Shown: positions 1 to 55,433, counted from the stretch's first letter. The stretch: 64,000 nt of DNA from Cenococcum geophilum (GCA_050273025.1 CP158635.1:15624001-15688000), one strand, 5' to 3'. The notes: a model not told the origin generated them from the sequence alone. Numbers and translations: made by a program.

Positions 1-430
1 CTACTTTTCCCTTAGGGTAAGGTAAGCTTTACCTATTTTAATATAATGTTAACTATATAAGCAAACTACTATAGAGTTATTATTAAGCAGTAGTTCTAGC
101 GGCTCGCTTTAATAGTCTAAAAGATCTACCTATATTAAGTTAGACTTACGTAGACCTTTATTAAGGGTTTTTTAACTAATTAGAGCTAATATATAGTGTT
201 CTAGCTCTAAGCGGTAGCAGCCTTTTATCTTAAAGATATTAATAAGTCGGAGAACTTTTTCCTAATTAAGGGTCTGAGCTCCTTTAACCTTCTAATACTC
301 AAACTTTAAAAATAATAAGCGGATCTTTATATCCCTATAAAAATAACTCTATTTCTTATTAAAAAGAGATAAGTTACACTCTAACTTAGAATCTATTGCC
401 TTTAACTTTAGCCTTTCTAGGTATATTAAA
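1..430 (-). pseudogene. DUF3723-family gene, 5' part (runs off the left edge); Starship auxiliary gene
   Basis: The minus strand at ~290-175 reads GAQTLN*EKVLRLINIFKIKGCYRLELEHYILALIS. De-RIP this is ~LDQEKVLRLVDIFEIEGCYRLEPEHHVSALIS, the typical DUF3723 N-terminal motif. It is followed by EPLELLL..IVVCL. The start is approximate. Confidence 0.75.
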
Positions 431-899
431 GCATTTTCTAGTTAAAATAGGTTTATTTTATTTTTATTATAATATATAAATAGCTTTTTTATTTTTTTAT
501 ATCTGTTATATTATACTATATATAATAATATATACCTTTAGATTAGGGGTTTACCAGTCTCTAGTAAAATATTAGGTTACTAATAACTAATAGGTGGTTT
601 AAAAATAGTAGAAAAGATTATAAGAAATTAAGAGATCCTAACGCCTATCTATGTCCTATTTATAGCTTATTTCTATCCTTTTACTCTATAATATCTATCT
701 ACTAGAAGCTTAGTAGAAGTTACCTCCTTCTAAGGATCCTGCTGTTATTAGCCACTTTCTTATAGCTATTCCTGTCCTATCTAGAAATAGAAAAAACGCC
801 TCTCTTTCTTTCTTTATATAAAATAGTTTTTATAGAGAGAGAGAGGGTCCTAGTTGCCTTTATATCTTCTCTCTCTCTATAAATAGCTTTTTTTGCCTT

Positions 900-2678
900 A
901 AATACTAATATTATTAAAACTATTCTGTTATAAAGCTAATATAAAGATTCCTATAAGAGTATAACGCCTAAACTTAGCTATATTTAAGTACTCTTATATA
1001 CTTACTAAATAAAGTAATAAATTCTTTTCTACTTAATAATTATATCTTATAAAAACCACGCTACGTAGCTATAAGTGGCTAGATCTACTAGCTTTATAAT
1101 TAATAACACTTTTTAGCTAGGCTATATTATTTAAGCCTTACTAAACCCTACTTTATAGACGCTGAGTTTACTTCTATTCCTAAATAAAAGGAGTAAAAAT
1201 ATTGCTTTACGGCAGCTATTTCTATATAATAACTTTAAGAGGCACAGCTCTAAGGGAGTTTTAAATATCTAAATTAATATATTTTTGACAGCGTATAATA
1301 ACCCAATTATCTTTATAAATGGTAATTTTACTAGCGCTGTCCTATCTTACCTAGCGCCTATATCCTACTATAAGAGCACCACTTATATAGTGGCTTGGCA
1401 GCCCCCTAGCGGACAGTTAGTTATTAACGCTATATTTACTTATATTATACTACCTTTTATTACAGTTCTTACCGTATTTATTAATAACTTTAATTCTATT
1501 AAATAAATTCTTACCTTTTTTAAATAATGGGCTAATATTAGTAGTTACGCAGGTGTCCTCCTAAGGACTAGCCTTAGTTTAATTGTTATTTCTTTATAAA
1601 AGAATATAACGAAAGCTAGAGCCGTTTACACAAGTGCTTACACTATAAAGATTTTCTTATAAATTGCCGTGTTTAAGATAGACGGCTTTTTATCTCCTCT
1701 AGCAGGCCATAGGCCTTTAAAGAAGGAAATACTAAGATAAGTTAACGAGATTAGATATCATTTACGGCTTAAATACCAATTATTTACTACGCATTACCTT
1801 AATACGCTCTATTAGGCAGCGCTACTATATATAGCTATAACCGCTATAGAGCCCTTTAATATTATTTAAGTAACTTAAAAGTATTATATATATAAGGATC
1901 TTAGTAGTTATATAAAAACCATTATAAAGCTTAGGAGGGAGGGGAAGATCCTTTATAAAGACGTTACTAAGTTTATCGCATTAAGTATTTTAATAGATGT
2001 ATATCCTCCATAAGTATATAGTAAAGTCACCTTCTTTATACTATTTCTTTTAACTAACTATTTTACTAGATTTTGTACTAAGGCAAATTTACCGTTTACT
2101 ATATCGATCTGCATTTATTTATATATTATTAAAAGTCTTTAACGAAAGTATAGGAGAGTATTAGAGCCGCTAAGCTAAAAAGCATATCTATAGTCTTTTT
2201 AAATTATTATAAAATATACCTTTTATAAAAGCCTAAGCTCTAGATATTCGTTTATATTAGGCCTATATTAAAACAAATAAGATATACCTATTCTATTACT
2301 TTTAAACTCCTTAGTATATGCTTAGTTATGGCCACACTATTTATAACATCTACGTTTAAATATTTAGCGATATAGTAATAGGAGTAGAGTATAAATATAC
2401 TATTAATGCCTATATTCTCTGTAAAGCAGTTTTATCTATAGGCTCTCTAACTATAAAGCTAAAGCCGCCTACTTATAGTATCCGTATCCTTAGAATTAAT
2501 AGTAGTAGTATAAGAGGCGTAATACCTCTAGAGTTCCTTTTACAAACCTAAAATTTATTTAGGTCCTGTATTATCTAGGACTTCTTTAATATAGTTATTG
2601 GTATAAGCTCCGGTAAGTAATCTATCTATTATTTAATACGGCGCTTATAAAAATAGGCGACCTAAAAGCCTTACTTAT
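900..2678 (+). pseudogene. Patatin-like phospholipase (PLP), 5' part, interrupted by the Copia insertion
   Basis: 2462-2612 reads KPPTYSIRILRINSSSIRGVIPLEFL...DFFNIVIGISSG, i.e. de-RIP IDGGGVRG and GTSSG (glycine loop and nucleophile Ser). A Cys/His finger relic (P*YMLSYGHTIYNIY) lies at ~2310-2355. ORF 1285-1506 is a fragment of the N-terminal region. Confidence 0.88.
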
Positions 2679-2852
2679 TGTCGGAACGTTAATCATATAA
2701 CGTGGTCACGGGACCACGTAGCGAGGTTAGCTAACCTAACCTTGGAGCAACCCCTTACTTCTAGTAAAAACAAAACAACTACTAACTTCAACACCGCATA
2801 CGTACCACTACAAGTAATATTTATGCACGTTGATAAAGCGAGTATACCGACA
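2679..2852 (+). repeat. 5' LTR of Copia-1
   Basis: TGTCGGAACG...TACCGACA, with short terminal inverted repeat TGTCGG/CCGACA. Matches 8875-9048. Confidence 0.97.
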
Positions 2853-2889
2853 CTAATTAGTAGACGTACAGATTAGGAAATACGCAATA

Positions 2890-3260
2890 GCAAAGCTTAA
2901 AACTACGCATTAGCTTAACTGCTAACGCGTTAGATTGTAGAGCTATCGCCCTATTTTAGTTAAAGGAGAAAGCTACGTTACCCTTAAAGCTCGAGACCAC
3001 GTATTAGCTTGCTAATACGTTAAATCGCCTAGAGGACCCTTAAAGCTCGAGACTACATATTAGCTTAATTGCTAACGCGTAAAATCGCCTAAAGAATTAT
3101 ATCTTTACTTAGAGAGAGCTACGTTACCCTTAAAGCTTAAGACTATGTATTAACTTAACTGTTAACGCGTTAGATCGCCTAGAGGACCTTAAAGCTTAAG
3201 ACCACGTATTAACTTAACTGCTAACGCGTAAGATCGCCTAGAGGACCATATCTTTGCTAA
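2890..3260 (+). repeat. Degenerate tandem repeats (~55-80 bp) in the Copia-1 5' leader
   Basis: Recurring taaagctcgagaccacgtattagcttaactgctaacgcgttagatcgcctagaggacc unit, about 5 copies. Confidence 0.85.
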
Positions 3261-3409
3261 GAATCGTCTTTAGTCTTTAGTCTTTAAAAACTATAGATTT
3301 ATTAAGGGGACACGCACACACCCTTATACCCTTACCTTTATACCCCTAACCTTAACCTTAACCTTAACCTTAACTTTTAAACGACAACTACCCTTATATA
3401 TAAAGACAC

Positions 3410-6400
3410 GATAATATAGAAATTGACTAAAAGGAAAGAATTGCTAAATACGGCTACGGAATCGACTTAGAGACGGCTATAGATAACAATCTAGCGGAGT
3501 ATATAGAGACTAAGATGCACTTATATACACGGTATAACCTTATAAACTTTTTACTATGGACAGTATATTAGAAAGACTTTAAAGACTTTACACCAGAGCT
3601 CTTTAAATAAGTACGATCCAAAACTAGAGCGGGAATCTATAACTACCTAGTTAAGAGAGGAGTATACGTTGTTAAGCAAGATAAGAGGCATACCCTTAGC
3701 AAGGTACTAACGGACATCGCTAATAAAAAAGAGTTTCATAAATAAATAAACAAGGAGCTTATCGCGGCCCTTATAGAGGTAAAGCTAATAATTACAACAA
3801 CTCTATAAGACCAACTTAATTCGACCTTAAATAAGCTTGCTATACCTCCAGCCCTACCACTAAGTACTCCACCAACTCCACCAGCTATTCCAGCCGCTGT
3901 ACCACCAGCTATTCCAGCCGCTGTACTACTAGCTACTCCGATTGCTGCACCACCAGCTACCCCAATCGCAGCACCGCCAGCTACCCCGGTCGCTACCCCC
4001 ACTACCCCTACTACCCCCCCCAGATCTACTCCGATTACTACACCGCCAGCTACTCTAATCACTACCCCTACTACCCCCGCTACCCCTCCTAATCCTTAAT
4101 CCTCTAATTACAACCAAATCTACGCTCTTATTAACCAACTGCTATAGCTAAAAGAGCAGCAACTGTAGCAGCTATAGCAACCGCAGTAGCCATATATACA
4201 TATACTACCCAAACTAGCTATGCCTAGCGTAGAGCAAGGACCTAAGCAAGAATCTAGATATAATAAGGAGGTAGCTATAATTACAAAGATCTATATAAAC
4301 AACCAAAAGTACAATAAAGTTAATAACAGCTTTAACTTTAAGCTAACTATCTTCTATAACATCTATAAGAGATCTAGCTTACCACTAGAAGGCTATATAG
4401 TGGCATTCCCTAGCATACTAAAAGGGCTTGCTTAGGACCACTACTATAACAGCAACCTTAAGTTAAAACCTTTTACTAAAGCCTGTAACCATATACGACA
4501 GTTCTTTAAAGGGCCAGAATACTACTATAAGAATCTTATAGAGTGGAACAGTATAACCCTCTAAGAAGTTATAGATGAGAACCCTAACAAGTTAATCTAT
4601 TAGAACTTCCAACTACTTATAGATAAGCTGCTAAAGTAACACTACGGACTACACCTAGACTTCCGTATAAACCGCATTCTTATAAATAAGCTAGTTACTG
4701 CTTGCTAGGGAGTACTAGTATACCGTATTACTATTTCCAACCCTTTAAAAGACCTCTCTTAGTTAATTAGTAAGCTATAATCCTCTATTATTACGTAGGA
4801 AAAAGAACACCCCCTATAGGCCTTAATAAGATCGTCTCATTAAGCCTTCTTTACGGATTAACGCTATTACTAAAATAACTAGAATTAAGACTAAAACACT
4901 AATCACTATAGTAGCAATTGCCCCTATAGAACTAACGGTAGACTAAAGGCCAAGTACTACGTCTGCAAGAAGGAGGACTGCTATTTATAAAAATATATAG
5001 AGGAGGAGCGTAATCGGTCCAGAGATGACTATAAGAGACGTTTTATTGATATTAAGGGCCGTAATAAGGGCAACTTTGACAACCACTTTAAATAATACGT
5101 CGCCATCTGCGAAAGAGATAAAGAGGATAACTTAGACTTTAAAGCCTACACATACGACGCTAATAACTCTAGAAGCAATGCCGGAGAACCTAACAATAGT
5201 TCTACCTATATTACTACCTTTAGAACACTTACTACAGAGAAAGCAACCTCTATAAGCGTAAAACTAGCCAATAAGGCTTATACACACCTGCTTATGGTTT
5301 TAGAACTTACCACGAAGTTCACCACGGAACCTTATACGGAGACCAACCCATTTGCCTATAATACGGCTATAGCCACAGCGTTATAATATACCTTAACGGT
5401 CTTTATAGGAATTATAATTAATATAGGTGCTTCGCGTAAGTCTATAGCTGGCTACGGTCAATTCTAAGCTTTATAGGCCGTAGATAAGTCCGTAAGTCTT
5501 AATACGTTAACTAAGAGCTAAGTAACTATCTAATTCGGGATTAGAGCCTCTACATCTATCGGAACCATAGACGTTAACAGCCCTATAGGCAAGGTATAAT
5601 TCCATATCATTAAAGCAAATACTCCCTTCCTACTTTGCTTAGCAGATATAAATAGACTCTATATTAAATACGATAACCTAAAGGACGTTATTATTACTCG
5701 CACTAAAAGGGTGCTAGTAGTTAGACGATTTAGCTACCCATTTCTCTTATAGAGCTTCTCCTTATAGTCTTATTTAGTCGAGTCTTTTAATATAAACCCT
5801 TGCTACTTAACTAACGTAGAACTACAACGTCTACACCATTAATTTAGTTACCCGTCAGTTAATAAACTGCAAAAGCTTCTTAATAAGGCTGGCTACGGCT
5901 ATAACACTAATAGATCCGCTATTAAAGAGCTAACTAGACTCTACTACTATTGCTAGAAGTATAGCAGATCTCTAGGTAAATTTCGCTTCACCCTATAAGA
6001 CGACATTAATTTTAATTATAATATCATCGTCGACATTATATATATTAGCGGCTCCCCCCTACTATACGTAGTTAACGAAGCAACTCAATTTTAAGCTAGT
6101 AGATAGCTATAAGATATCAGCGCCAAGCACACTTAGGACACTCTACGGATGTACTAGATTAATAGCTACTTAAGACCACTAGACCTAATCACCACAAACG
6201 CCAAGAAGAACTTTATTAGTAAGGAGTTTAAGCACTACGCTACTACTATAGGAGTAACTACAAAGTCAGTTCTAGTCAAATTACACAATTCTATTAGAAT
6301 GGTAGAGCGCTACTATGGTCCGCTATGACGAGCCTACTAAATCATTACGACTAAAATCCCTAAAATTAGTAAGGAGATAGCCCTATAAATGGCCTTTAAA

Positions 6401-8600
6401 GCTATTAATAACACGGCTAGCCTAGAAGGCCTAGTCCCTATACTCCTAGTCTTCGGAGCCTACCCCCAAATGGTTAAATTAGATACGCCATCACCTTCAG
6501 TTATATAGCGAGCTGCGGCTATTAAGAAAGCAATAGTGGAAATCCAGAAGCTATAAGCTAAACGACAGATTACTAATGCTCTTAATATGCAAAACGGACC
6601 ACAAACTAACGCCATTTATGGCCTCCCACCCAGTTCGCCTATCTTAGTCTAGAGAGAAGGCAATACTAGCCAGAGTGGTTATTAGGATAGGCCACACACG
6701 CTACTTGCCGTCGACGGTAAGACCTATACCGTAAAGCTACCAAATAAGCCTATAACCTTTCGCTCTACGGTCGTAAAACCTTACCTACTAGACCTATAAG
6801 ACCTAGTTAAACCACAAGAGCCTGTTAAATTAGCTAAACCAGTACCTTTATTAGCTAAACCTCAATCGTTACCTAAAGCCAAACCACAGCTACCGCTAAA
6901 GCGAGGCAGAGGTCGCCCCCATAAATACCTATTGCTTACGGCCATCGCAGACACAGCTACTATAGACGCTACGATAGATACAGGTGCTTTTACGGGTGAT
7001 ATTATAGATATTACTAATATCGCTATCTACTTACAGAATAATGATAACACCTAATTTAGCGCTTTATAACAAAAGGAGGTCACAGGCCTACTTAAGAAAG
7101 GCGTCTTTAAGATCATTAAGCTACGCGATATACCAAAGGGGGTCAAACTCTTTAACTTACGGTTTATTAATAAGATCAAGAATAAGGGAACCGATAAAGC
7201 CTTTAAGAAATCACGACTTATTATACAGGCCTATAATAATTTAGAGAAAAAGCTAGTCCTTACTTAGTTACTAATAATTTAACGGGTTAGCCAGCGGCTA
7301 ATTCTCTGTATCGCTGCTATGCTACCATAGACACAACTCTACCTCCGAGACATCTCACAAGCCTATATCTAGTCCACTACGAACCTAAACCGCGAGTTCT
7401 ACGTATAACCACTATATAAGCTAAATAAACAATTAGGAATTAATACGGACTCCATTCTAAAGGTTATAAAGCCACTTTATAGAGTACCTAAAGCTAGAAA
7501 CCACTAGTTTAAGACCTACCATTTACACTACGTTAATTAGCTATAAATAAACCAGTCTACGTACGACCCTTACTTACTCTACAGCAATAAGCCTTTTAGA
7601 ATTATTGGCCTATAGACTAACGATATACTGTTCCTTACAGATAATACCTTTATAGAGGCTAAATAAAGCAAACTATATAAGGCCAAATTTATGGCTAAGG
7701 AGCGAGAGTAATTAACTACTAATATACCAATTAAGTTTAATGGAGGACTTATTTAATTAATATAAGATGGGAGTATTACGCTAACGCAAAAGCGCCAGTG
7801 TAAGAACCTTAGTGTGGTTAACACTACGCTAGTAGACAGCACTAGCTCTAGAGGAGTTACGCGTAGCCTGCTTATGTTAAAGGACTAGTATATTGCTTAA
7901 CGCGCCAGAGGAGCCTATATTGCCTTAGTCTGCTAGCTAGAGGCCTTATTTAACCTATCCTTTACTACCTAGGTAATTAACCTAGTTAAAGACAATATAA
8001 AGAGTCTTAATAAGCAATTAAGCTAGTAGATTAAGAACGCAAATAGAGGCCTAAAGTTTGTTAAGCTAGACGTTAATACTTTATAACTCCTGGTATTTAC
8101 GGACGCTTCCTTCGCCAATAATAAGGACTTATCTTCGCAAATTGGCTACATACTTATACTAGCAGACGCCTTAAATAAGGCAAATATCGTTTACTAGTCC
8201 TTAATTAAGTGCAAAAGAGTCACTAGGAGTATATTAGCCTTAGAGTTATACAGCATAGCGCATAGTTTTAATATAGGCGCTATAATTAAATCTATGCTAG
8301 ATAAGGTCTTATAGGTTAACTTACCACTCGTTTTCTGTACTAATTTAAAGTCTTTATATAACTGTCTTATCCGACTAGGAACTACGCAAGAGAAACGCTT
8401 AATAATTAATATAATATGCCTTTGTTAAGCTTATAAACGAAGACAGATTACTAAAGTTAAGTAGATTAATGGAGATACTAACCCTACGGACGCTATAACA
8501 AAGGGTAAGCCCTATACGGCACTATTATAGCTTATTAACACAAATTAAGTTAAATTATAGGCTGTAGGGTGGGTTAAGCAAACGGATTCGACTTTAGTTT
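3410..8600 (+). pseudogene. Copia-1 gag-pol polyprotein (many RIP stops)
   Basis: Zn-knuckle relic YYVCKKEDC at ~4955. Protease IIINIGAS (IDTGAS) at ~5411. LQRLHH*FSYPS (RLHxxFGHPS) at ~5822. Integrase core HNSIRMVERYYGPL at ~6285. RT LYLRDISQAYI*S and LKVIKPLYRVPKARNH* at 7340-7510. RNase H VFTDASFANN at ~8094. Confidence 0.93.
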
Positions 8601-8684
8601 AGCGTTAGCGCTAGTACTAAGCGAGCCAATAGCGATTTTCCATCCCGGGGATGGAAAATCCTAATTAGTTAGCAGAAGTTAGGT

Positions 8685-8787
8685 TCGGTAGAATTTGGCA
8701 GAATTCGGTATTATGGCAGAATTCGGCAGAATTTGGTAACATGTCAGAATTTGGCAGAATTTGGTAATATGGCAGAATTTGGCAGAA
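8685..8787 (+). repeat. Short tandem repeat (ggcagaatt(c/t) with ggtaacat-type spacers) upstream of the 3' LTR
   Basis: About 8 copies of the cagaatt core are directly visible. Confidence 0.85.
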
Positions 8788-8874
8788 AGTTGCTATTGCG
8801 TATATACTACAAATAGCCTAGAAGTAGACTTAACTTTAAAGTATAGATTAGTCTTCTTTTTAGAGTTGCTCTAG

Positions 8875-9048
8875 TATTGGAACGTTAATTATGTAACGTG
8901 GTCACGGGACCACGTAGCGAGGTTAGCTAACCTAACCTTAGAGCAACCCCTTACTTCTAGTAAAAACAAAACAACTACCAACTTTAACACCGCATACGTA
9001 CCACTATAAGTGATATTCGTGCACGTTGATAAAGCGAGTATACCGACA
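8875..9048 (+). repeat. 3' LTR of Copia-1
   Basis: TATTGGAACG...TACCGACA. Collinear with the 5' LTR, and the differences are transitions. Confidence 0.97.
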
Positions 9049-10550
9049 CTTATATTTCTTTATGGATAGGACGTTACCTAATACAGCGAAACATTTAACT
9101 AAACCCTTACGCAATTTTTTAAAAGCCAAAGGCCTATATCTAAGTCATTCCTCTTACGTTTACGCGGTTATCTCTATATATAGCTTTTAGACGGTTAGTA
9201 TAACGCTATAGCTTTAGAAAAATACTTTAAAAATATCTTTAGGCTAATAAGACGCTTAATAAATCCGATAGCTTCGGCTTACTTAGGTATAAAGGTAGCC
9301 GTAACAGCTACCAATATTTTAGACGTGGTACCTTTTTTATTTTCTAATTACAACCCTTCCGCAGAAAAGACGAGTGGTTTATTTAATAATAATATTAGTA
9401 AAGTAAATAATATAACTAAGGCTTTTAGTAGGCTATAAGTATACTAAACCAAAAGAGAATAGTATTAAAGAGATTCTATATATCTGGTAAGCGTAAGTTA
9501 ACCTTTAATAAACTAGGCTTCTTGCGCTAATTACTAAATAGTACTAGGGCTACCTCTACCGCCCTAGTATATATATTTAAAGCCCTTTAATCTTCTCTTT
9601 TACTACCTACTAATTAATTAATAAGGTTATTCCGGGCTGTAAAACTAAAATTATTTAGCGCCTTTTAAAATAGGAGATTAAAGCACAATAATTTAATAAG
9701 CCTTAGACTTTGCGAGAGTTGTTATATTTAGTCTAAAGACTATAGGGCTAATATAGTCCTATTTCTTAGAACTGGCACTATAGAGAGCTAGTCGCCTTAA
9801 GCTCCACATTTTAGGCATATCTTTAATAATAGGTTTATTCTAAGACTCTATCAATTATAGCTTTCTTTTTTTAATGGCGAAAGAATATAGAGGGATTTTA
9901 CTGTATACTTAGACGACAATTTAAAAGTGAACTACTTTCGTTTTAATATAAAGCTAGAGGAATCGATGGCCATTAATAATACTTTAATTATGGCTAAGTT
10001 ACGGGAGATAGTATAGATACAGCCTTACGGAGCTGCGGAGCGTCAAAGATTAGTCCTATTACTCTTAGCTTTATCCTTTTTTTTTAAGCTGGACTACACC
10101 CTAAAATTTAATATAGGATTTTATAGATATAAGGGATCAATTTGCTACCAAAACCAAATTAGCGCAATTACCGACATGATTAGTCGCATATTCCCTTTAG
10201 CAATAGAATTTATTACTAATTTAGTTACCCTAGCGACCTTTAAGGGTGCTTAAGATATTTATACCTTATGCCTAAGGTTTAGGAAACCAGTAGTGTTTTA
10301 TATAAGACACCCTTCTAAAACTATTATAATATACCTTAGAGTAAACAAAGACATTTATATTAGAATTAGTGGGTTTCTATAAAGTATGTCCTAGTTTATT
10401 CGGCAATAACAACTTAATACTCCTTTTAGTGTTCCTAATTATAGTATACTTAGATTAGTTGCTTGCTCTTACTATTATATAGTAAAGGTTTCTTTAAAAA
10501 GACGTTTTAGTTCCCTAGGAGATACTATATAGAAGTAAACACGACTCTAA
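9049..10550 (+). pseudogene. Patatin-like phospholipase, 3' part
   Basis: The frame resumes after the TSD. TRATSTA (ARATSAAP) at ~9543. AF*NRRLKHNNL (FQDGGLKHNNP, catalytic Asp) at ~9660. IVLFLRTGT (IVLSLGTG) at ~9753. C-terminal ISGFL*SMS*FIRQ*QLNTPFS at ~10365. Confidence 0.88.
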
Positions 10551-10816: not shown

Positions 10817-10980
10817 ATACTCTAGAATAACCCGTGCTTTAGAATAACCTATACTTTAAAATAACCTATACTCTAGAATAACCCATACTCTAGAATAACC
10901 CGTGCTCTAAAATAACCCGTACTCTAAAATAACCTATACTTTAGAATAACCTATGCTCTAAAATAACCCATACTCTAAAA
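10817..10980. repeat. 17-bp tandem array, 9 full copies plus a partial (consensus ~GTGCTCTAGAATAACCC)
   Basis: Units counted directly. Two inverted copies of the core (GAGCACGG/AAGCACGG) lie just upstream at ~10727-10756. Confidence 0.95.
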
Positions 10981-11479: not shown

Positions 11480-14400
11480 TTATTTCTAGAATTTAGCTCT
11501 AGAGACCGCCTAATAAGTAGGGAAAGTTGTTTAGGGGAATTTCTATAGTATAGGATCTGTTTTTTTCGCGCCTAAGAACTACTAGGAATAACTATTCTCT
11601 AGCATTTAATATAGCTCCTAGTCTCGCTTTAGGATTAAAGGTAAAGTTTAACAATTAAGGAAGGTTATTTAGAGGAACTTCTATAATATAAGACCCGTTT
11701 TTCTTACGCCCTAGAATAACTAGGAATAATAGTTCTTTTAAATTGGTATTAGAATTAAAAGTAGAGTTTAATAGCGGTTTTCGGGTGCGGCAATTATGTA
11801 TAGGGGATAACTTATATATAGATAGGGAATAGTAAGTCCACTAGAGATAATGCTTTATAGCGCGCTTTAAGTTTAACTAACCGCCGATAGGCGTTAATAG
11901 TTACACTATATACTTATAGACATTATTACCCTCGCCTTTATTATCTATGTCGCTACTATTGTTATTATAATTTTCGGCTTTAGCTAAATCGTTAGCAGGA
12001 TTATAAAGAACTTAATTTAAATAGTTACTAACCTTATTATAGGGTAGTATAGTGTTACAGGGAGAGAAGTACTAAAGGAAAGGGCTAGTAGGTTGCGCAG
12101 TAGAGGCCGCCTAGTTATTAGTATAGTTATAGAGGTTAAGGATAAGACTAGGAGAAAAGGTTTTATAAAAAAGTAATTTTTATTACTTTATAGGCCTAAG
12201 GTTCTTAAAATTATTAAAGCTATAATTAATATTTTTTAGTTACTTAAGCTAATTAAGTCTCCGCTTCTTTAATATTAATAATATACTTCTTAAGTTTGTT
12301 TTCTTACGCCCACCCTTATTAGCTAATAGGTTATCTATATTTATATTTATTAGTCTAGGGTTATAGTAATCGCAGTCTTTATAACTTACTAGCGCCCTTT
12401 ACTTTCCTAGCTTTTAAAGACTCTTAACTAGTAACTAATATTACGGGTTCCTAACTAAGCTGCGAAGTAGTTCTATTATAACGGCTATTAGCTAAGTTAT
12501 CGCTGTCTAGTAATATAGGTTTAGTATAGCTGCATATAGGTATATAGAAGAGCTCTTTTAACGCTTCTAATAAGGGTAACTTATTATTATTATTACTGCT
12601 ATTATTTCTATAATCTTTAGCTTCTAGGTCTAAGTTAGCTATATTATCTTTAATAACTATTAGATCCGCTACTACTTATTAGATATACACAGATACTAAA
12701 AAATAATAGGAAAGTGCTAGGATAAATTACCTTAACTACTTCCCCTACTACCACTTATATCGTAGATATCTTTATCCTCGCTATCCCTGTTATCCTTATT
12801 ATTATTCTTCTTATAATTATATTTAAAATCTATAGACACTTTATTAGGCGGAATATTTAAATTAAGGCCCTATATAGAGTAGAGTACCTAAGAGTAGCAA
12901 AGCTTAATACGCCTTGGGATCGTCTTTTAGGTAAAAATAAGGTCTATTAGACTTCCTCTAAAGTATACCCACGCTTATTATTAGGGCTGTAGGTTATATA
13001 ATACTACTAAGGGGCTTTTAGCTTTTCTTAAGTAGTAGTATAGAAATTAATTAAACGAAATTTCTAAAGAGAAACAGTGTTCGTTGCTATTACTTAAGGG
13101 GAATTACAGGATTTTAAAATACGCGCTAGTCCTACCTTTACCGCTAGCTTTCGCCTATAGCCTAGACTTCTTAACTAGCTAAGGCATCTAATATATGCCG
13201 TTTATAGGGTAAAGGTCTATAATGGCCTAGACCTACTACCTAATTAATACCTTTAGCAAATTATAGTTAGAATAGCGCCCTACCTACGCAGCTAAAATAT
13301 TTAGCTCTAATAAGGCCGTCGTATTGGTATTTCTTAATAAATGGCAGCGCTAACGTATTTACTCCAACCTAATAGAATTAATCTCCCGTATTAATTGTTA
13401 GCTAAATATAAAGCCTAATATATATACGCGTCGCTAGATATCTATAACAGAAGAAAATAGTATCCTTATTAGTGGTAAGCGGAGCCCCCTAATACTAACT
13501 ACTCTGATACGCCTACCGCCCGCATTAAATAATCTAGACCTACTAGCAGCGAGCGGGGCTCTTACTTTAAGACGCCTACTATATATATAATTATCAAATA
13601 ATTTAAGTATACTAGTGGCTCCCTACTAACCCCTCCGCTATTAACACACCTACCCTCTTATATTATTAAGTAATTTAAACCTACTAGCAGTAAGTAAAGC
13701 TCTTAAATACTAATCGCTTTATTACTAGTACGCCTACCGCCTATATAATTAAGTAACCTACTAGTAGTAAGCGGGACCCTCTAATGCTAATTACTCTATT
13801 ACTAGCACGTCTGCTAGCTATACTAAGTAATTTAAACCTACTATATAGCGAGCGAGGCTCTATTAAGTGACCCAAATATATTAATAGTAGGCGGTATAGA
13901 ATACTGCGTAATACTTACCCTTCTAATATAGACTGGCTAGTATTAATCCTTTATAGTTATATACTCTAACCTAAAAGACTAGACCTTTACCGCTTAAACG
14001 TTTTGTAAGTAGTAAGGTAGCTAAATAGTCCTTTACGCCTAAGTCTATAGACTATACAGTATCCTTAAAATGCCCGTTTTAATACAACCGTATAAATAGA
14101 TAGGTATGCGTATATAGCTACCTAAAAAGCTACTTATAAGGTCTAGTTCTAATAGCCTAGTAGGGTATAGTCGCTTAAATATTTAGCTAGGTTTTTACTA
14201 AGTAACTTAGTAGCATATCCTTATAATATAGGTAGCTTTGACTATTAGCGGACACTAAAGCTATTAGCTCTATACGATATATCCTAGGAAAAAAGAGCGC
14301 GTAATTAAATTATATAACGTATGCTTAACCCAGTAAAGAAGGCAGGGCGAGGTAGTACGCCTATCTATCCCTACCTAGGAAGGGTATATAAACGACTACG

Positions 14401-14700
14401 GAGTAGTCTTAATTAGGAATTAAAAGGAGAAAGGTAAGAGAGAAAGTAAAATTGTAAGGATATATACGCGCTAAAAGGACAGAGGTAGCACTAAAAAAAC
14501 TTAATAAGCATTAGAAAGTTGCTAATACTAAAGGCTAAAGTTAGGAGAGGCTAAAGGAAAGGCCGTAATTAACTATATTAATTATTAGTTAAAGATATAA
14601 AATAGATACTTATATATATATTAGCGCTAAGGGGCGAATATATTTTAATGCGACGGTAATGAGTAATAAGAAGAGGGGGAGGCGCGGTATAAAAAAAGAT
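11480..14700 (-). pseudogene. Unknown-family gene, copy A (paralogue of 52050-55433)
   Basis: Collinear nucleotide blocks are shared with 52050-55433: gaaaggccgtaattaactatattaattattagt (14557 vs 55287), agggctagtagg..agaggccgc (12081 vs 52675) and cgcttctttaa (12323 vs 52886). Confidence 0.75.
13470..13862. repeat. Degenerate ~65-80 bp tandem repeats inside unknown gene copy A
   Basis: Recurring acctactagcagcgagcggggctc...acgcctaccgcc...aagtaatttaa unit, about 5-6 copies. Confidence 0.75.
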
Positions 14701-14949
14701 AAGGATAAGAAGAAAATAAGGCCCTTTAAGGTAAAGATTGGGGGTCTTAACGGAGCTAAGGTTCGCTAAGTTCTTATAGACTAACCGCTCCTTACTAACA
14801 AATTCTCTACTTTATAGGGGATAGCCGTATATACGTACTTTCCCTACCCTATAACCAAATTCTACTATAGGGCGTCTAATTTATAAGATAATCCTTATAT
14901 AAGACAAACTTCGCGAATATTATCTCCTCTACATTACTATCTTTTAGCT

Positions 14950-17821
14950 AACTTTTACTTTTAGAGCTATTTTTCTTTCTTAAAGGAGGCAAGTAAAAAA
15001 TAATAAAATTTAGCTTAAAAGATTATTAATTAATTTTTATTTAATAATACTAGACTAGCTAGTACTATAGTTCCACATTAATATCTATTTCCTTTTTTAT
15101 CGCTCTAATCTTTACTAGTATTTAATTTCTTCTCTTTTTACCTATTTTTATATCTTTTTCTATCTCTATATATAATTCGTTAAGCCCTCCTTTTAGTATT
15201 TCTAATATACTGTCCTCTAGATATTTATACTCCCCTAAACCATTAAGAAACCCTTTTAACGTTTCTTTAGTATTTTATAATGCAATTTTAGGATCTCTAT
15301 ACCCTATTAATATTAGAACTACTTTAGTACTACTATACTAGAACTTACTTAGATTTATTCTTTTCTTTTCCCTATTCTTTTTTTTCTTTTTTTTATTCTC
15401 CTTTTTCTTCTTCTCCTCTTTATTCTTTTTCTTCTTTACCTTTTTTTTTTTCTTCTTCTCCTTTTCCTTTCTTTCCTTTTCCTTCTCCTTTTCCTTCTCC
15501 TTTTCCTTCCTTTCCTTTTCCTTCTTTTTCTTTTCCTTTTTCTTCTCCTTCTTCTTTTTCTCCTTTTTCTTATCCTTTCCTTTCTTCTCTTTTTTTTTTC
15601 TTTCTTTCCCTTTTTTTTTTAGCTTTCTTTTCTTTCCCTAATTCTATTAGCTTCTTATACTTTACTACTAGGGAATTTTCCTTACCCTTTATTGCTTCCC
15701 CGTCCTTATTATCTTCTTTATTATTCTTATTATCCTTATTACCTAAGTTATCTAAGTTATCTAAGTCGTTTAAGTCGCTATTCTCTTCTTCCTCTAATAA
15801 TTTATCTAATAAGGAGTTATCCTTATTATCCCTAAAGGAGGACAAGCCTAAGTTATCCTTATTGCCCTTATTATCTAAATCTAAGTTACTATCTTCTTCC
15901 TTCTCTAATAACTTATCTAATAAGGAGTTATCCCTAGAGGTAGAGTTATTAGAGTTATCCTTAGAGGAAGATAAGTCTAAGTTATCTAAGTTATTCCTAA
16001 AGGAAGATAAGTCTAAGTTATCTAAGTTATCTAAGTTATCCCTCTTTTTAAATTTCCTCTTACTTATCCGCTTCTCCCCCCCTATTAGCATCTATTACTT
16101 TCTAGTATATTTTAGTATACTATTAGGCTCTAGTTACTTCGCCTTCTTCTAATACCCCTCTAATTCCCTATTAATAAGTCCTAATCCGTACTTATTGTAT
16201 AATACGGTCCTTAAAAACTACCTCTTTACGCCCTTTACCTTAATATATATAGCCGTAATTGGTATATTAGTGTAATAGGGTGCGTTATTTTAACTTTTAA
16301 GAAGACATAACCTTTTAGGCTTAATTCTCTATCCATTAATACTATACCTTTAATAGTAATGCTTATAAAGGGGACATCCTTAATATACTTCTTTATGCCT
16401 TTTATAATTAGCTTAGAGTATTTATCCTTATAGATTTGTAAAATCCCCTTACCGAATCTTCCGCTTATAATAAACATATACCTTTTATAACCGTTAAATA
16501 TCTTTAGATGCTAGATTAAGAGCTAATAGCCGCTATAACTTACCTTTTACTAGCCCCTAAGCTACTACTATTAGCTATTTAACGAGACTTAACCTCGCTT
16601 CTTTGTCGCTGCTAAAGGTTTAAAAGTTTTATTAGTGTTATCTTTAGTAGCCTTTATATAATCCTTCTTTTTTCCTTTCTTCTTCTTTACTTCCTTTTTT
16701 CCCTTCTTCCCTTTCTTCTTTTTCTTCTTCTTTTTCTTCTTTTTTTCCTTCCCCTTTTTCTTCTTCCCCTTATCTTTCTTAGCTTTTTTCTTCTTTATAA
16801 ATAGGTCCGATTATAAAACGCCTACTACTCCACCTACTATTTTTTAAGAATATTATCGTTAAGAGTAAGGGTAAAAGGAAGAAAGTTTAGAAGATCCTTT
16901 CTTTATTCTCTATACTAAGCTACTAGTAATTTAGTATTAATTATATCTAGGTAGTTTTTCGCTATCCCTATACCAAAATTATCTAGTTCTCCTTTTATTA
17001 TATATATAAGTATATTTCTTAAATCCTTTAGTAATAGAAGAACTGTCCTATAATAAACAGTGCCTAAGAGTTTATAGCAGTTATATACTTTATTATATTT
17101 AATAGCTTCTTAATTTACTTTTCTTAGGTTATTAAAAGTTATAGAGTTATCTCTAATAACACCTCGCCAAAAAATAGGAACTAACTTTTTATTTTAGTGG
17201 TTAGTATAAAATTCACTAACTTAATTAGGATTAAAATTATTATCTTTTATTTCTTAATCTCCGTCCTTATCTATTGTTAGATCTTATAGCGTAGTTAAGG
17301 ACTTACTACGGCTAAACCCATTATTTAGCTCTGGCCTCTTTATACCTTTTTTTTTACTACTAGAAGAATAGTTAAAGTTAATTAAACCCTTCTTAGGGGT
17401 CCAATTCTTTATTTCTTTAACATATTCACTTAGAATATTAAGTTTTTTAGCAACGTTTATAATAACTATACAAAAGTTAGTCGTATATTATATATATATT
17501 AAACTCTATACTTTAAAGAGCCTTATCGCCATTATTTACGCCACTCCGCTTTAGATATACTTCCTATACTACCTTCCGCCATACTTATATTTTCTAAATA
17601 GGACTTAGGTTGTCGCCCTTCTTAAGTTAAATAAATTTTAGTAGACTGGCATCGTTATCACTCTACTTAAGAATTTTGTTAATCTTATTCTGGCGTATTT
17701 GGTTTTCTTATTTAGGTTTAGCTAGTTTTTTAGCCCTATCTCCCTTTCTCTATTACTTCTTTTAGAGATTATTATTAGGGAATAGGGTCGCTTATAGAGT
17801 AGGGGGCGCGCTATTAGCCAT
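14950..17821 (-). pseudogene. Unknown gene with Lys/Glu-rich and Asp/Ser-rich low-complexity tracts
   Basis: ATG at 17821 (MANSAPPTL...). Purine-rich KE tracts at 15350-15640 and 16660-16800, and a DN/SD tract at 15700-16050. ORFs 15570-16091 and 16235-16477 are pieces of it. Confidence 0.55.
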
Positions 17822-33600: not shown

Positions 33601-33699
33601 TATTTAAATAGTTTGCTTCTATATATACTTATCCCTTATACAGTAACTAAGAACTATTCTATATTATTCCAATCTCTAAACTATTAAGGAACGTAGTCT

Positions 33700-35801: not shown

Positions 35802-36053
35802 AAGCTGCCGTGCGTAAAGGACGGCAGTAATACTTTAAGATATCCTCATTCTTAGATTATAGTACTCTTTTTAGCTTAAAGGTCTATTTCTAGTTTAGCA
35901 TTCTTATCCTTAGCATATTTAGCAGGAGCATTTTATAATTACTAGTTTAATAGATTTAAATTCTTTATATGCTCTATACAATATATAGTAGTAAAACTCT
36001 AATTACTACCTTACGTAAGCTACATTCTCACTTAGCCTAGTTACGTTATACTA
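35802..36053 (+). repeat. 252-bp inverted repeat, left copy (candidate TIR)
   Basis: Aligns end to end with the reverse complement of 51525-51776, and the differences are almost all transitions. Confidence 0.93.
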
Positions 36054-36492
36054 CGTTTCTATATTTAAAGACTAAGGTAATTATATAACCGTATCTGGGT
36101 TTTAGAAATAATTAGATAAGTAATTAAATAGTGCCGTCTTCTTTTAGTAATATAATTTTATCCAATTTTTAGATTCTACCGTTTATTAGCTAAAAGCTCG
36201 GGATTAGTTATCGCTTTTATTATAGTATATTATTAGGCCCTCGCCAAGTTATACGTAAGAGGCTTAGTAGGGGCTATTACGTATAGGCCGAATTCTCGCT
36301 TAACTTCCCTCTATTCTCCCTACCTCAATTATATATTTTAGAGTTTTAGCGAATACCTTATCCGACTAAGGATAATTCTAAGTCTAGACCTTTATCTCTT
36401 ATATAAGCGCCCAAATTATAAAGTAAGGAGAATTAAAATCCCTCCCTATTTGTTTCTAACATATATATATATAGGTATTATAACCATTACAG

Positions 36493-39490: not shown

Positions 39491-40649
39491 CTCTAACATT
39501 ATTTTATATATCGACAATAATGGCAACAGTGCTATTTAGGGGGTTAGTTTGTATACTATCTAGATTTATCTAGTTAGGCGCCTTATAGTCGCCGCAATCA
39601 GTCTAAAGCTATAGTTAGATCCTACTATTATAGGCCTAGGAAGTTTTCTACCTCTTCCTTACACTCCCTTATAAGCGCGTCTTTTAAATTATCTTTAACT
39701 CTAGTTTTCCTAATTGTGCTAGCCATAGTATAGTAATTCACGACAATTAAAGTAAGTTATAATCGGTATCTTTATCGCGTAATATATATACTATTAGGAA
39801 GCCGAGCCTAAGGGCAGATTGTGGTAATAACTAATAGAGCTATTATACTAGCAATGTATAAGGTTAAGAGGAGGGTAGTTATATTATAGGCTTATAAAGA
39901 TAAAGAGAAACCAAGAAACTAAGTAAGAATTCTAGTAAGCTTCCTATAAATATTAAAGACGTTTTATAGATTTCTCTAAGGGAAATATAATAAATATACA
40001 AAGTTTAGTAAGAGGGGCTTTAATAAAAAGGTAATAAGGCGACGATATTATTATTAAGAGTGACCGTATTAGCTAAAACATTTTTAGGTAATAGGCGTTT
40101 AATACCTAACTAAAAAACTACGCTACCCTAAGTGGTTAGAGGGGTAAGAGTAATATATAACCCCGCCTAAGCCTATTTATTGCTATAAACCAACGTCTAG
40201 ATATCTATACTGCGCTCTACTTAATATATATAATAAAGAGGGGAGTAAAGCGGAAAGTATTTATATAGATTTTGTTATAAGATTATCTACTTAAATCTAT
40301 AAGCTAGGGAAACGCCTAACGCTAAGTATATTACTAGCTAGGAGCGGCTTTATTAAGGATTATACTTCTATTTACTCTCTTATATACCTCCTACGGGTAT
40401 AAAAAGCTAAAGTTTAGTTAAAGTCTAGTTAAAGTCTAATTAGAATCCGGTTAGAACCCGGTAAAAACCTAGTTAGAGTCCTATTAAAAAATAGCCGCAA
40501 ATTAGCAAATAACTAAAGTTTAAACCTTATCCTATACTTCCTTTAAAGCGTCTCTATTCCGCTATAATATACTATAATACACTAGGCGTATAGAGGCCGA
40601 GCTAAATAAAAGGAATACTCTAATCTTATTTATTAAAACGCCTAAACCA

Positions 40650-51000: not shown

Positions 51001-51524
51001 ACCTATAGCCCTACTAGTAAGTAGATACTAATAGGAATTTCTAAAGATAAAGATATACCGGTATTTACGTTTAACGGAGTAGTAGATAGATCTTATAATA
51101 ATTCTCTAAGGCGCTAGCGTTCTTCTATATGTATAGTATAGACTAGAATAAATAAGGGCAAAGAGGAGATAAGGATAGTCCAGTATCTATTACTAGGGGC
51201 GGTTATTATGTATACGTTAGATAAGGCTAAAAGAAATAGGTGGTCACTAAGATACAGTTTTGCGTTTATTAGTTATACAAAGGATAAGCGGTATAAAGAA
51301 GTCCTTAAAGCCATTAAGAATTATATACTAATAGATAGGATATTCGTACTAATCTAGCTATATAATGTATATTCGTTTCCCTATAGTAGACTTTCTTTAA
51401 TAATTAGGTGCTTAAAAGTTAGAATAGGATAAGTAAAAGGTAGGATATAAAGCTATTTATATAAGCCGCTATAGGAGATAAGCTAGGATGCTAAAGTGTT
51501 CTTAATTAGAGCGGCATTAAGACT

Positions 51525-51776
51525 TAGTATAACGTAACTAGGCTAAGTAAGAATATGGCTTACGCAAGGCGGTAATTAGAGTTTTACGGCTATATATTAT
51601 ATAGAGTATATAAAGAATTTAAATCTACTAGACTAGCAATTATAAGATATTCCTACTAAATACGCCAAGAATAAGAATACTAAACTAGAAATAGACCTCT
51701 AAGCTAAAAAAAGCACCACTATCTAAGAACGAGGATATTCTAAAGCATTACTACCGTCCCTTACGCACGGCAGCTC
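51525..51776 (-). repeat. 252-bp inverted repeat, right copy (candidate TIR)
   Basis: Ends ...CTACCGTCCCTTACGCACGGCAGCTC|TA and is the reverse complement of 35802-36053. Confidence 0.93.
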
Positions 51777-52049
51777 TACCCTTTACTTTTATAGAGTATA
51801 CCTATAGTAATCTAACCTTAGTATACCAGACGCGTCTTTAGTAAGACTTAAGGGCATCTTTGGAATTTAAAAGCCCGCTCTTATAAACCTAGGTAGGCTT
51901 CTAAACTACCTTATATTTACACCCTAACTTAGTTATTCTTTCCCCTAGAATATTATTAATCTCCAATTTATTATCCAAGTTTATTTTATTAAATTTATCT
52001 TTTTTAGCCTAGGTATAGCGCTTTATAGTAGGCTCTAGGTTTAAAACGT

Positions 52050-55000
52050 CGCTCTAGTTATTGGCAACGCTATTAGGGAATTATTAAGGAATAATATCTA
52101 GTATATATAACCCGTTTTCCTAGCGCCTAAAAGCTACTTAGATTAACTATTCTTCTAAATTAGTATTTAAGGCGGCTCTAAGTATCGCTTTACTATAATT
52201 AGAGTTAGAGGCTAAGTTTAATAGCGGCTTTTAGGTATAAAGGCGATTATATATAGGGGATCCAGCCTAATTATAATAATTGCTACTAAGCGCAGTGCTC
52301 CGGTCAGACGTGTACATAAATAAAATTAAAGGGGAAAGGTAAGACCGCTAAAGATAATACTTCGCAGTACGCTTTAGTTTTAATCTACTACTAACGGGCG
52401 CCAACGATTCTCGTCGCCCTATATACCCGTAAGCCTTATTACTCTTATCGCTATTGCTATTACTATTATCGCCGTCCCTAGCGTTGTCATCATCCGTATT
52501 ACCGCTATCGCCGCTTCTATTGTTGCAGTTCTCGGCCTTACCTTCATCCACAACATTCTCGCCGCCCTTATTATTATTATTATAATTATAGTCTTTAGCC
52601 AAGCCATTAATAAGATTATTAAGATTATCTTATAGCGGTCTAATATTACAGGAAGATAAAGATTACTAAAGTAAAGGGCTAGTAGGCCACGTAGCAGAGG
52701 CCGCTCGCTCCTTAATACAGTTATTACTACCGCTAAGGTTAGGGCTAGGAGGGCTAGGAGGTAAGGTTCTCCAGAAAGCTAGTAATCTTTATTACTTCCT
52801 AGGCCGTAGGCTCTCGCCACCCTCACTAATAGAAGTATTAGAGATATAATTAATATTATCTAGTTACTTAAGTTAATTAAACCTCCGCTTCTTTAACTTC
52901 TTAGCTCTTAAAGACTCTTAACTAGCGCTTACTAATATCCTAAGCTCTTACCTAAACCGCAAAGCGGTTCTAATATAATGCCCCTTAGCTAAATTATCTG
53001 TTTAACTGCTATCTAGCGTTAAAGGTGTAGTATAATTATACATAGGTATATATACCTCCTCTTATAGCACTTCTAATAAAGGCAGCTCTTTATCTTCTTT
53101 ATTATCCTTATTACTACTATTATTCCTATTATCTACTAATTATTAAATAAAGCCATTATAAATTAAAGGAGATACATATACTAAATTTATAGGGCATTAG
53201 TTAGTTATTGGCTTTACTAGCCTTATTAACTTTATTAGCTTTATTATTAGCGTTACTAAATTTATTGCCCTTGGTTTCCAGGTCCGGATCGGCTGTATTA
53301 TCTTTAATAACTATTAGATTTGCTACTAGTCGTTAAAACTATATATTTAAAACTACTAGGAAAGAGGGAGAGTAGTAGGGTAATTATTAGGATAATTACC
53401 TTAACTACTTCCCCTAGAGACTTAACTATTATTTCTATCCCTATCTTCCTTGTTGTCCTTATTATCCTTATAATACTTATTATAAGCTTTCTTATAATTA
53501 TATATACGGTCTATAGGCACTTTATTAGACGGAATCTCTAAATTAAGGCCCTAGGTGGAATAACATGCCATTAAGTGCCTAAGCTTTTAATACTTCTTAA
53601 CTTTTTAGGGGGAAAAGTGGTATTTTATACTTTATCTAAGGTATACTACTTACGCCTTTTTTAGAAGCTGTAGTTATATAATACTAAGACAAAGCTATCG
53701 ATTTTCTAGGGGGACTAATATAGAAATTATTATTATTAAGTAAAATTTTAGGAGGGATATAAAATGAAGATTGAGGTAGTGCCAGCATTATTACCGTTAG
53801 AGTTGCCGTTGCTTTATAGCTTTTAAAAGCCTTAAAGGGGGAATTATAGGTCTTTTTAAGTGCACGCCAGTCCTCTATTCGCCGCTAGCTCTTATCTATC
53901 GCCCTCTACCCCTTACCCCCTGCTTGGGCTTCTTACTAAATTAAAGCACTTAATACGTACGCCTCCGGCATAAGCTAGAGTAAATTACCGTTTATAGGGT
54001 ATAAAGGTTTATAAGGGCTTAAATATCTAGCGCCTAATTAACACCCTTAGTAAATTATAATTAAACTATATCCGCCCGTCTAAGCTAGCATATTTAGCTT
54101 TAATACAGCTATTATATCTAGCCCCTTATTAGGAGGCTAGTAGCGTAAATTCCCCACCTTTATCCCTTAGTAAAGGGTAGCGCTAATATATCTATTTACT
54201 TCCTAACAATACTAGTCCAGCTAATTCTCTACGCCGCTCGTATTAGTAGGAGGTAAAGCCCTACTTATACGTCCGCGTTACGAGCTATCTATAATAAAAG
54301 GAGGTAGTATCCTTATTAGTAGCGGGCGGGGCTCTTTAATACTAACCGCCTAGTAACGGATATGCCTGCCATTTGCACGGTAATTATATATATATCCATA
54401 AATATGCTAGGTAAAAGACTATATAGGGATACTTGCCCTCCTAATGTGGCTAGCTAGTGTCGGAGATTCCTACACAGTTATGCCACTATACTATTAATCT
54501 ATCGTGCGCTTAAAAGCTATAACCTTCTAATTTTAATCCAAGTAGTTCCTACTATAGCCCTATAGCTTAGAAGGCCAGATTATTAATTCTCCGCTTTACT
54601 GCTAAGTAAGGCAGCTAGAGCTAATAGCCCCTTAGCCCTAAACTAGTAGATTAAACGACGTTACTAAAACATCTATAGTAATGCAACTATACTACTAGGA
54701 AGGTATATATAGCAACCTAAGCAATACTCTATATAATGTCCGTTTAAATAATGCCTAATATAGCCCCGCACGGCGTAGTCGCTTAAATTAGTAATCCCTA
54801 GCTACTTTTCTGTTAAGTAGCCTAGTAGGCATATAAGTTATAATGTAGGTAGCTTTAGCTATTAGCAAACGCTAAAGCGGGCTATCTAACTAATAGTGTA
54901 TCCTAGGAGAGAAACGTAGGTTACTAAAATAAGTGCGACGTAAGCTCTTTTAAGCCCTTTAGGGGGCGATACGTATACCTATCCCTCCTAGCTTAGAAGG

Positions 55001-55433
55001 AGATATAGGGCTAAGTTAAATAAGACGATGGTGCTAACGCGGCTAACGCGGCTAATAACTGCGAAATTCCCCTAACCCCCTTCCCATAAGATGGTTGCGG
55101 GCTAGCGTTATTTAGGAGGCCAAAGGAAAAAGAGCGAAAGAAAAGAGGATTATAAAGGTATATACGCGCTCGCTAGACAAGGCCGCGCTAAAAGAGCTTA
55201 ATAATAATTAAAGCTATTGGTAATAGAGGCGTAATTAGAAAACTATAGTCGTCTATATATTAACGTAGAAGAAAGAGTTACCTATTAGAAAGGCCGTAAT
55301 TAACTATATTAATTATTAGTCTAACGCGGGGGAATAAAGGAATAAATAGGCTGGACGTGCATACGTATAAGCGCTAAGGGGACGGCAGAAATGCCTTAAT
55401 GCGACTATATCAGGGATTAGCAGCAAGAAGAGG
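52050..55433 (-). pseudogene. Unknown-family gene, copy B; 5' end interrupted by Copia-2
   Basis: Collinear homology with 11480-14700. Similarity (aagaagagg) runs right up to the LTR start at 55434. Confidence 0.75.

Follow-up and report, generated by a model that had tools for sequence, protein, structure and literature searches.

Relics of Starship hallmark genes in a RIP-mutated and retrotransposon-invaded region of the Cenococcum geophilum genome

We analysed a 64-kb stretch of DNA from Cenococcum geophilum (CP158635.1:15624001-15688000; this whole stretch is referred to below as the window) by making use of protein libraries and public sequencing runs. An initial annotation of the sequence had taken positions 1-55433 for the body of a giant transposon of the Starship type, mutated as a unit by repeat-induced point mutation (RIP). 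The window, indeed, holds the remains of three kinds of Starship hallmark genes, namely a DUF3723 gene and a patatin-like phospholipase (PLP) gene at its left end and a gene for a DUF3435 tyrosine recombinase (the ‘captain’) at its right end, with a long block containing other gene relics between them. We argue below that this is probably a degraded Starship-like region, and that its block most likely belongs to an element other than the one headed by the captain found.

Hallmark gene relics at the two ends of the window

RIP creates stop codons without causing frameshifts, and we therefore translated all six frames of the window, reading stops as X, and scanned the products with Pfam. The reads were 5000 amino acids long over positions 1-58202 and 2000 amino acids long over 58001-64000, complemented by reads of 700 amino acids over 16.8-23.1, 24.2-32.6 and 37.4-52.1 kb. 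Candidate relics were re-scored in pieces of 110-340 amino acids, and this shortening from 5000 amino acids raised their Pfam scores by 5-7 bits. Frame finding by stop density or by TGA-only frames proved useless because TGA is almost absent, and the purine/pyrimidine periodicity of codons gave weak hints only: six pieces chosen on its basis yielded no Pfam family, yet one of them was the PLP gene.

The right end of the window is occupied by a RIP-damaged captain gene on the plus strand (62135-64000), which is cut by the window edge. Two consecutive matches to PF11917 cover profile positions 1-210 of 418 (62852-63568; E 6.7e-53, 180.6 bits) and 212-325 (63625-63939; E 5.4e-16, 59 bits), and the same domain is present in all 17 homologues retrieved (best E 3.8e-98). 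The top homologues come from Bipolaris, Plenodomus, Clohesyomyces and other Dothideomycetes, Pleosporales among them, with 57% identity over 55% of the query. The closest intact relatives are named ‘C2H2 finger domain protein’ in public records, so that searches by name would miss them as captains. A hidden Markov model (HMM) built from 12 homologues matches four segments of the relic (62165-62419, 62469-62717, 62783-63577 and 63604-63999, in frames 2, 3, 2 and 1, respectively), and the changes of frame may reflect introns or indels. The gene is a pseudogene, its 565 codons including 27 in-frame stops. The same HMM, run with all filters off, detected no second DUF3435 relic in the window, and none following the first copy of a 3.2-kb repeat described below. 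Just upstream of the captain is a 460-bp stretch of 43% GC, preceded by a 740-bp ‘AT-only’ spacer (60931-61670; GC 13.5%) and then by a copia-type retrotransposon. The spacer, which could be an AT-rich insertion target or decayed sequence, contains two mutually inverted arrays of 11-nt tandem repeats (60983-61033 and 61161-61236).

At the opposite end, the N-terminal part of a DUF3723 gene lies on the minus strand (10-219), the remainder extending past the left edge of the window. The match to PF12520 has an E-value of 3.9e-5 in the 5000-amino-acid read and of 1.6e-7 in a 110-amino-acid read, where its 30.8 bits (profile positions 1-72 of 508) exceed the family cutoff of 22, and the gene had thus been correctly recognized in the initial annotation. 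It adjoins, in divergent orientation, a PLP gene on the plus strand that is split by a retrotransposon. The 5′ part (1045-2638) comprises an N-terminal domain of about 340 amino acids without a Pfam family and the start of the patatin domain, and the 3′ part (9052-10514) resumes at the very residue where the insertion cut the gene. The identification of this gene, likewise claimed before, holds by virtue of its homologues only, given that Pfam recovers no patatin domain from the relic, even in short pieces. A HMMER search with window positions 601-2700 returned 318 proteins at E ≤ 1e-3; the top match (2.5e-58, 38% identical to the query at residues 149-479 of the latter) is a ‘FabD/lysophospholipase-like protein’ from Mytilinidion resinicola (P0049). 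Patatin is present in nine of the 14 homologues scanned, including all six of 938-1022 amino acids, at about residues 470-730, and one of 1802 amino acids, while homologues of about 340 amino acids, which match the N-terminal domain alone, have no Pfam family. The same placement of the domain applies to the homologues of 805-1022 amino acids, and no further Pfam family was found at E ≤ 0.001 in the scanned matches. An HMM built from 15 long homologues maps colinearly onto the relic: its positions 4-526 fall on 1045-2094 and 2072-2638 and, beyond the gap, positions 525-629 on 9052-9369 and positions 653-959 on 9543-10514. Searches by tblastn with P0049 place its residues 2-512 at the 5′ part, and residues 521-619 and 643-938 at the 3′ part. 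In-frame stops number 26 in the 537 codons of the 5′ part and 42 in 939 codons overall. Just past the end of the gene lies a 17-nt tandem array of 9.5 copies (10817-10977), at a place where the 3′ boundary of an element would fall if the DUF3723-PLP pair were terminal.

Starships are defined in PMC9156397 (Gluck-Thaler et al. 2022) as regions that carry a DUF3435 gene at their 5′ end and are delimited by target duplications, whereas the term ‘Starship-like’ is used there for regions in which DUF3435 colocalizes with DUF3723, ferric reductase (FRE), PLP or NOD-like receptor (NLR) genes without target duplications, and the degraded (‘Derelict’) Starships are those with several such genes and no DUF3435. 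The window combines DUF3435, DUF3723 and PLP within 64 kb, which agrees with the second of these definitions when ‘colocalized’ is taken to mean the span of the window. It has a captain in the form of a pseudogene, and stops in all relics as well as a PLP gene split by a retrotransposon mark it as derelict. The captain-first layout is, nevertheless, not seen for the block at 1-55433, which lies upstream of a captain residing on the plus strand. According to PMC11162782 (Gluck-Thaler & Vogan 2024), cargo is situated downstream of the captain 3′ end, and the block is therefore not the cargo of this captain, whose own cargo would lie beyond position 64000. The initial annotation had expected the captain to lie outside the window; one is in fact inside, at 62135-64000, beyond the coordinates then considered and pointing away from the block.

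A different explanation for this arrangement, which we regard as possible and somewhat doubtful, is that the block is not cargo and lies between the derelict ends of two unrelated Starships. One element would end at about 10.5-11.5 kb, its captain being left of the window, the other would start with its captain at about 61.7 kb, and the sequence in between (11.5-55.4 kb) would be either a segmental duplication mutated by RIP or a patchwork of old repeat families with captured gene fragments. This agrees with the adjacency of DUF3723 and PLP in the Voyager element described in PMC9156397, where the two genes are far from the captain, and with the upstream boundary given in PMC11162782 as at most 7 kb, and usually 2 kb, from the captain start, which puts the start of the right-hand element to the right of the block. 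Evidence on the block itself, which bears on this possibility from both sides, is considered in the following sections.

RIP damage and copy number

Judged by commonly used RIP thresholds, a RIP signature is present in all 32 two-kb bins of the window, with GC at 0.29-0.40, TpA/ApT at 1.42-1.93, (CpA+TpG)/(ApC+GpT) at 0.23-0.68 and the composite index at 0.86-1.65. The composite index is 1.2-2.1 over the gene relics, and RIP indices accompany every feature. The RIP damage claimed for the block is thereby confirmed, but its claimed end is not: the signature continues past 55433 to the end of the window, and 55433 is the last base ahead of the 5′ long terminal repeat (LTR) of a copia-type insertion, not the end of a larger element. 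Only four stop-to-stop frames of at least 100 amino acids exist in the 64 kb. The longest stop-free frame (15328-16152, 274 amino acids) is no gene and represents an artefact of a poly-pyrimidine repeat; a pyrimidine-rich block of low complexity, in which purines make up a share of about 0.3, occupies 14700-17000 and includes two CT-rich tandem arrays (15362-15639 and 16667-16795).

The copy number of the block was approached by placing contigs of 200-500 nt from four public runs on the stretch 20001-40000 at a likeness of at least 80%. All 30 bins of this stretch are covered in all four runs (3226, 4996, 11316 and 5929 pieces, respectively). In run X1, 658, 907, 1166 and 495 pieces are at least 99%, 95-99%, 90-95% and less than 90% identical, respectively, and the differences listed comprise 2895 transition places against 102 transversion places, transitions being far in excess in each of the four runs. 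The maximum number of different contigs over one place is 10, 17, 36 and 27 per run, which, considering the length of the contigs, is a rough proxy for copy number. Only 1-3% of the pieces continue into unlike sequence, from which we infer colinearity over many kilobases, contigs of 200-500 nt being too short to span it. The gene relics are multi-copy too: at 33012, within the first of two kinase relics, ten of ten X1 contigs differ from the window, and at 23777, within a JmjC relic, 18 contigs of run X6 do so. The stretch thus has both the indices of a RIP-mutated repeat and multiple copies that differ by transitions. The proposal of more than one copy subjected to RIP is in this respect well founded, whereas the description of the genes as seemingly single-copy is true within the window, where self-matches are few, and not genome-wide, with many contigs lying over 20-40 kb in all four runs. 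The initial annotation had named the lack of a second copy or captain, together with synteny to intact core genes in related species, as a result that would speak against it; copies are found, and so is a captain, though by the published layout not the block's own.

A probe from 20-30 kb (10 kb, sampled as 31-letter words) was found in 20 runs from nine studies. One run contains a share of 0.60 of its words; the share is 0.51-0.55 for a sample that bears a second species label and falls to 0.11-0.20 for 15 more runs, and the exact copy in the window may be absent or differently mutated in most other runs of the species. A piece of about 180 bp at 28440-28620 stands out by a summed contig depth about 40 times that of its neighbours (3012 versus about 70 in X1 and 54066 versus about 1300 in X2 for the bin 28005-28671), and some contigs skip exactly this piece. 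It looks like a small insertion of very high copy number, perhaps similar to a miniature inverted-repeat transposable element, missing from other copies of the block.

These data bear on the scenario of RIP leakage, in which single-copy core genes were mutated as bystanders of neighbouring repeats and no giant element was involved. Although the low self-similarity within the window would suit it, as would the resemblance of the KDM4/Rph1-type JmjC and kinase relics to ordinary host genes, we consider it highly improbable: all bins of the 20-40 kb stretch, with gene relics among them, lie under many diverged copies in four of four runs, and Starship hallmark genes are present. The copy numbers are of more help to the notion of a non-cargo block between two derelict Starship ends, since 10-36 or more copies are typical of ordinary repeats and unlike the Starships documented in PMC9156397. 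On the other hand, a mosaic of short repeat families should yield more than the 1-3% of pieces that leave colinearity, and there is almost no repetition inside the block.

Other gene relics, retrotransposons and repeats

Four further domain relics in the block exceed the cutoffs of their Pfam families. A JmjC domain of the KDM4/Rph1-like type lies at 23679-24035 on the plus strand (PF02373; E 8.9e-4 in the 5000-amino-acid read, and 1.3e-5 with 26.1 bits against a cutoff of 24 in a short read), and 35 PDB sequences match it at E ≤ 0.01, Rph1 being the best (3.9e-7). The first kinase relic, extending from the catalytic loop to the activation segment (32798-33169, plus strand), matches Pkinase (E 2.8e-7 in the long read; 3.7e-9, 36.8 bits, cutoff 31.7 in the short one) and 74 kinase sequences in PDB at E ≤ 0.01. 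The second one (36637-37095, plus strand) matches Pkinase at E 2.5e-5 in the long read, PK_Tyr_Ser-Thr with 28.5 bits (cutoff 23.1) in the short read, and 398 kinase sequences in PDB at E ≤ 0.01, with PLK4 as the best (2.2e-9). Agreement between Pfam and PDB in all three cases upholds the JmjC gene and the two kinases of the initial annotation. To these can be added an SRF-type (MADS box) DNA-binding domain on the minus strand (35119-35217), which it had not listed (PF00319; E 1.1e-4 in the long read; 3.3e-6, 26.9 bits, cutoff 26 in the short read). An F-box had been listed, and the corresponding stretch on the minus strand (34657-34743) is F-box-like at best, its match to PF00646 (E 0.072 in the long read and 0.0025 in the short read) staying under the family cutoff with 18.1 versus 20.5 bits. 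The MADS-box and F-box-like matches (residues 23-55 and 181-209, respectively) share one minus-strand frame at 34501-35283, about 130 codons apart; this may be an odd domain pairing if both are real, or else two neighbouring relics or chance, and the stretch had no match in PDB at E ≤ 0.01.

The recognizable domains of the block are thus of the host-gene type and not of the transposon type, which speaks against its being a mere repeat mosaic between two Starship ends. Between 9 and 55 kb, a stretch that excludes the two copia elements described below, the six-frame Pfam scans revealed neither transposase nor reverse-transcriptase domains. The ferric reductase of the initial annotation was not recovered: PF01794, PF08022 and PF08030 gave no match in the six-frame Pfam scans of the window, which also miss the pieces of the patatin domain, and targeted attempts failed as well. 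A hydrophobic stretch at 1.0-2.0 kb looks by eye like a membrane protein, but represents the N-terminal domain characteristic of PLP proteins of this family, and a candidate that has HPFT- and GPY-like motifs (20.1-20.6 kb) matched nothing in Pfam, in PDB or in a word-indexed protein search. NLR genes (NACHT with HET, SesA or Ank) likewise had no match in these scans, Pfam being weak at such a degree of decay. Because the patatin pieces are missed as well, the silence of Pfam on ferric reductase and NLR is weak evidence of absence. Scans of the window for Rfam families and tRNA genes found neither, and no 5S or tRNA target site is therefore visible.

Two retrotransposons are nested in the region, both of the Ty1/copia type. 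The first (2677-9048, plus strand) is inserted within the patatin domain of the PLP gene. It is delimited by LTRs at 2677-2854 and 8873-9050, which are 93-94% identical and differ by 11 transitions, eight of these at CpA, and by a perfect 5-bp target duplication (CTTAT, 2672-2676 and 9049-9053), and contains an RVT_2 domain (E 0.0016). The second (55434-60930, plus strand, its 3′ end being approximate) was assigned by the starts of its LTRs (55434 and 60762) and by its domains, namely Pol_BBD (E 5.2e-9), gag_pre-integrs, SH3_retrovirus (E 8.4e-15) and RVT_2 (E 7.6e-28). It is the least RIP-mutated part of the window, with a composite index of 0.77.

Self-similarity within the block is low, with two repeats standing out. 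Transition-tolerant alignment scoring over-extended in AT-rich DNA, and stricter scoring with a shuffle control was used instead. A direct repeat of about 3.2 kb, not assigned to any kind, occurs at 11518-14676 and 52074-55433, the likeness of the second copy to the first ending exactly at the start of the second copia element. Over 2593 aligned nucleotides the copies are 71.7% identical, with 533 transitions versus 201 transversions, and the repeat does not resume behind that element, nothing alike being found between 14.6-18.5 kb and 60.85-64 kb. The purine/pyrimidine periodicity of codons is alike in the two copies, in frames that correspond (+3 and +1), and the repeat may encode something; Pfam found nothing in either copy. 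As the copies bracket 14.7-52 kb, they fit the view that the block is a separate unit between two Starship ends.

The other repeat, of about 480 bp, occurs in three places, intact at 51513-51995 and in part at 25410-25591 and, inverted, at 35800-36065. The two partial copies, 10.2 kb apart and in opposite orientation, together sum up to the intact one, as would be expected of a 10-kb inversion that had one of its breaks within the repeat. One contig of run X2 joins 25588 to 35797 on opposite strands, which may merely be another intact copy. This hint of at least one inversion in the block is relevant to a further scenario, in which the whole window is a single Starship whose captain once headed the block and was later inverted or displaced by recombination between repeats. 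The occurrence of DUF3435, DUF3723 and PLP all within 64 kb would also be explained in this way. We nevertheless find it improbable, as there is no sequence sign of an inversion that includes the captain, the position and orientation of captains are described in PMC9156397 as always conserved, and nested or neighbouring Starships offer a simpler account.

Interpretation and comparison with known systems

We interpret the window, with moderate confidence, as an AT-rich island, mutated by RIP and invaded by retrotransposons, that contains a degraded (‘derelict’) Starship-like region, in which the DUF3723/PLP block most likely stems from another copy with a captain to the left of position 1. A giant Starship-type element with cargo would have multiplied, every additional copy opening all copies to RIP in sexual cycles, and the conversion of C:G to T:A would have gone on until all genes, including the captain, were filled with stops. 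Afterwards or meanwhile, copia elements would have inserted into the wreck, and the rightward captain would head a neighbouring element extending past 64000. The simplest account is that two or more dead elements lie side by side, the left one carrying DUF3723, PLP and perhaps the block, and the right one starting at about 61.7 kb. Judging from the sequence, nothing in the window is likely to be active. The Starship origin proposed in the initial annotation accordingly stands insofar as relics of DUF3435, DUF3723 and PLP occur together. What changes is the place of a captain, one being inside the window, and the status of 55433, which is no element end, and that the 55 kb form a single hold is no more than a possibility.

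Several circumstances weigh against this interpretation. The sole captain in the window points away from the block and cannot be its own. Colinearity over many kilobases is deduced from the low share of divergent pieces among short contigs, and the 10-36 or more copies, being far above the 0-5 per genome (0-4 for Voyager) reported in PMC9156397, fit ordinary repeat families better. Relics of ferric reductase and NLR genes were not found in the six-frame Pfam scans of the window. The DUF3723 and PLP genes of Voyager have the highest gene numbers listed for it in PMC9156397 (table 2); if the pair is near the 3′ end here too, the block could fall outside an element that ends at about 10.5-11.5 kb. 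Finally, Pfam is near-blind at such decay, having missed patatin and barely seen the first copia element, so that its failure to see transposon domains in the block is weak evidence in favour of a cargo.

RIP-degraded and captain-less Starship remains have already been described, and the window is a further example of them: PMC9156397 includes such derelict regions as well as nested elements, and PMC11162782 proposes that RIP-mutated copies be termed derelict or degraded. The unusual feature would be the copy number, which would be ten to several tens as opposed to the 0-5 per genome of PMC9156397. It is conceivable, though we put it forward tentatively and as a speculation, that a Starship family or its cargo module reached tens of copies per genome in this Dothideomycete and then, killed by RIP, became a main building block of its AT-rich isochores.

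Wrecks of this kind escape gene callers and Starship finders, which depend on an intact captain and on clean insertion sites; translation that reads through stops still recovers hallmark genes from Starships killed by RIP. If the block is truly cargo, Starship copy numbers can far exceed those described, and RIP would turn Starships wholesale into AT-rich isochores, linking two topics that are usually kept apart. Isochores would then consist in part of giant cargo transposons with captured host genes, such as those for a KDM4-type demethylase, kinases and a MADS-box factor, and not of retrotransposons alone. The AT-rich isochores of related plant pathogens house fast-evolving genes. Should the block turn out not to be cargo, the window would amount to an ordinary island of RIP-mutated repeats that contains two dead Starship ends.

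AT-rich isochores of the type found in Dothideomycete plant pathogens such as Leptosphaeria maculans, shaped by RIP, are described as mosaics of a few families of retrotransposons and DNA transposons. The window is like them in being a long block of about 30-35% GC with RIP-diverged repeats and nested LTR retrotransposons, and unlike them in that its bulk has relics of host-type genes and Starship hallmark genes.

Among individual Starships, the closest parallel considered here is Voyager of Macrophomina phaseolina, for which PMC9156397 lists a captain, NLR, FRE, DUF3723 and PLP and mentions degraded copies. DUF3723 and PLP are neighbours in both, and in Voyager this pair is far from the captain. 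Voyager inserts into 5S ribosomal DNA and is present in 0-4 copies per genome, whereas the window has no Rfam family or tRNA, and the captain described here is closest to proteins of Pleosporales and other Dothideomycetes.

With respect to the Starship-like and Derelict regions of Pezizomycotina (PMC9156397, PMC11162782), the window differs in that FRE and NLR were not found by our Pfam scans, that its only captain points away from the block, and that up to 10-36 contigs lie over one place per run, far above the 0-5 copies per genome of PMC9156397. It is similar to these regions in the combination of DUF3435 with DUF3723 and PLP in a region with no demonstrable target duplication. It also shares with them copies that are RIP-mutated, non-functional and invaded by transposons, and the presence of a second captain beside older material is reminiscent of the nested cases reported there.

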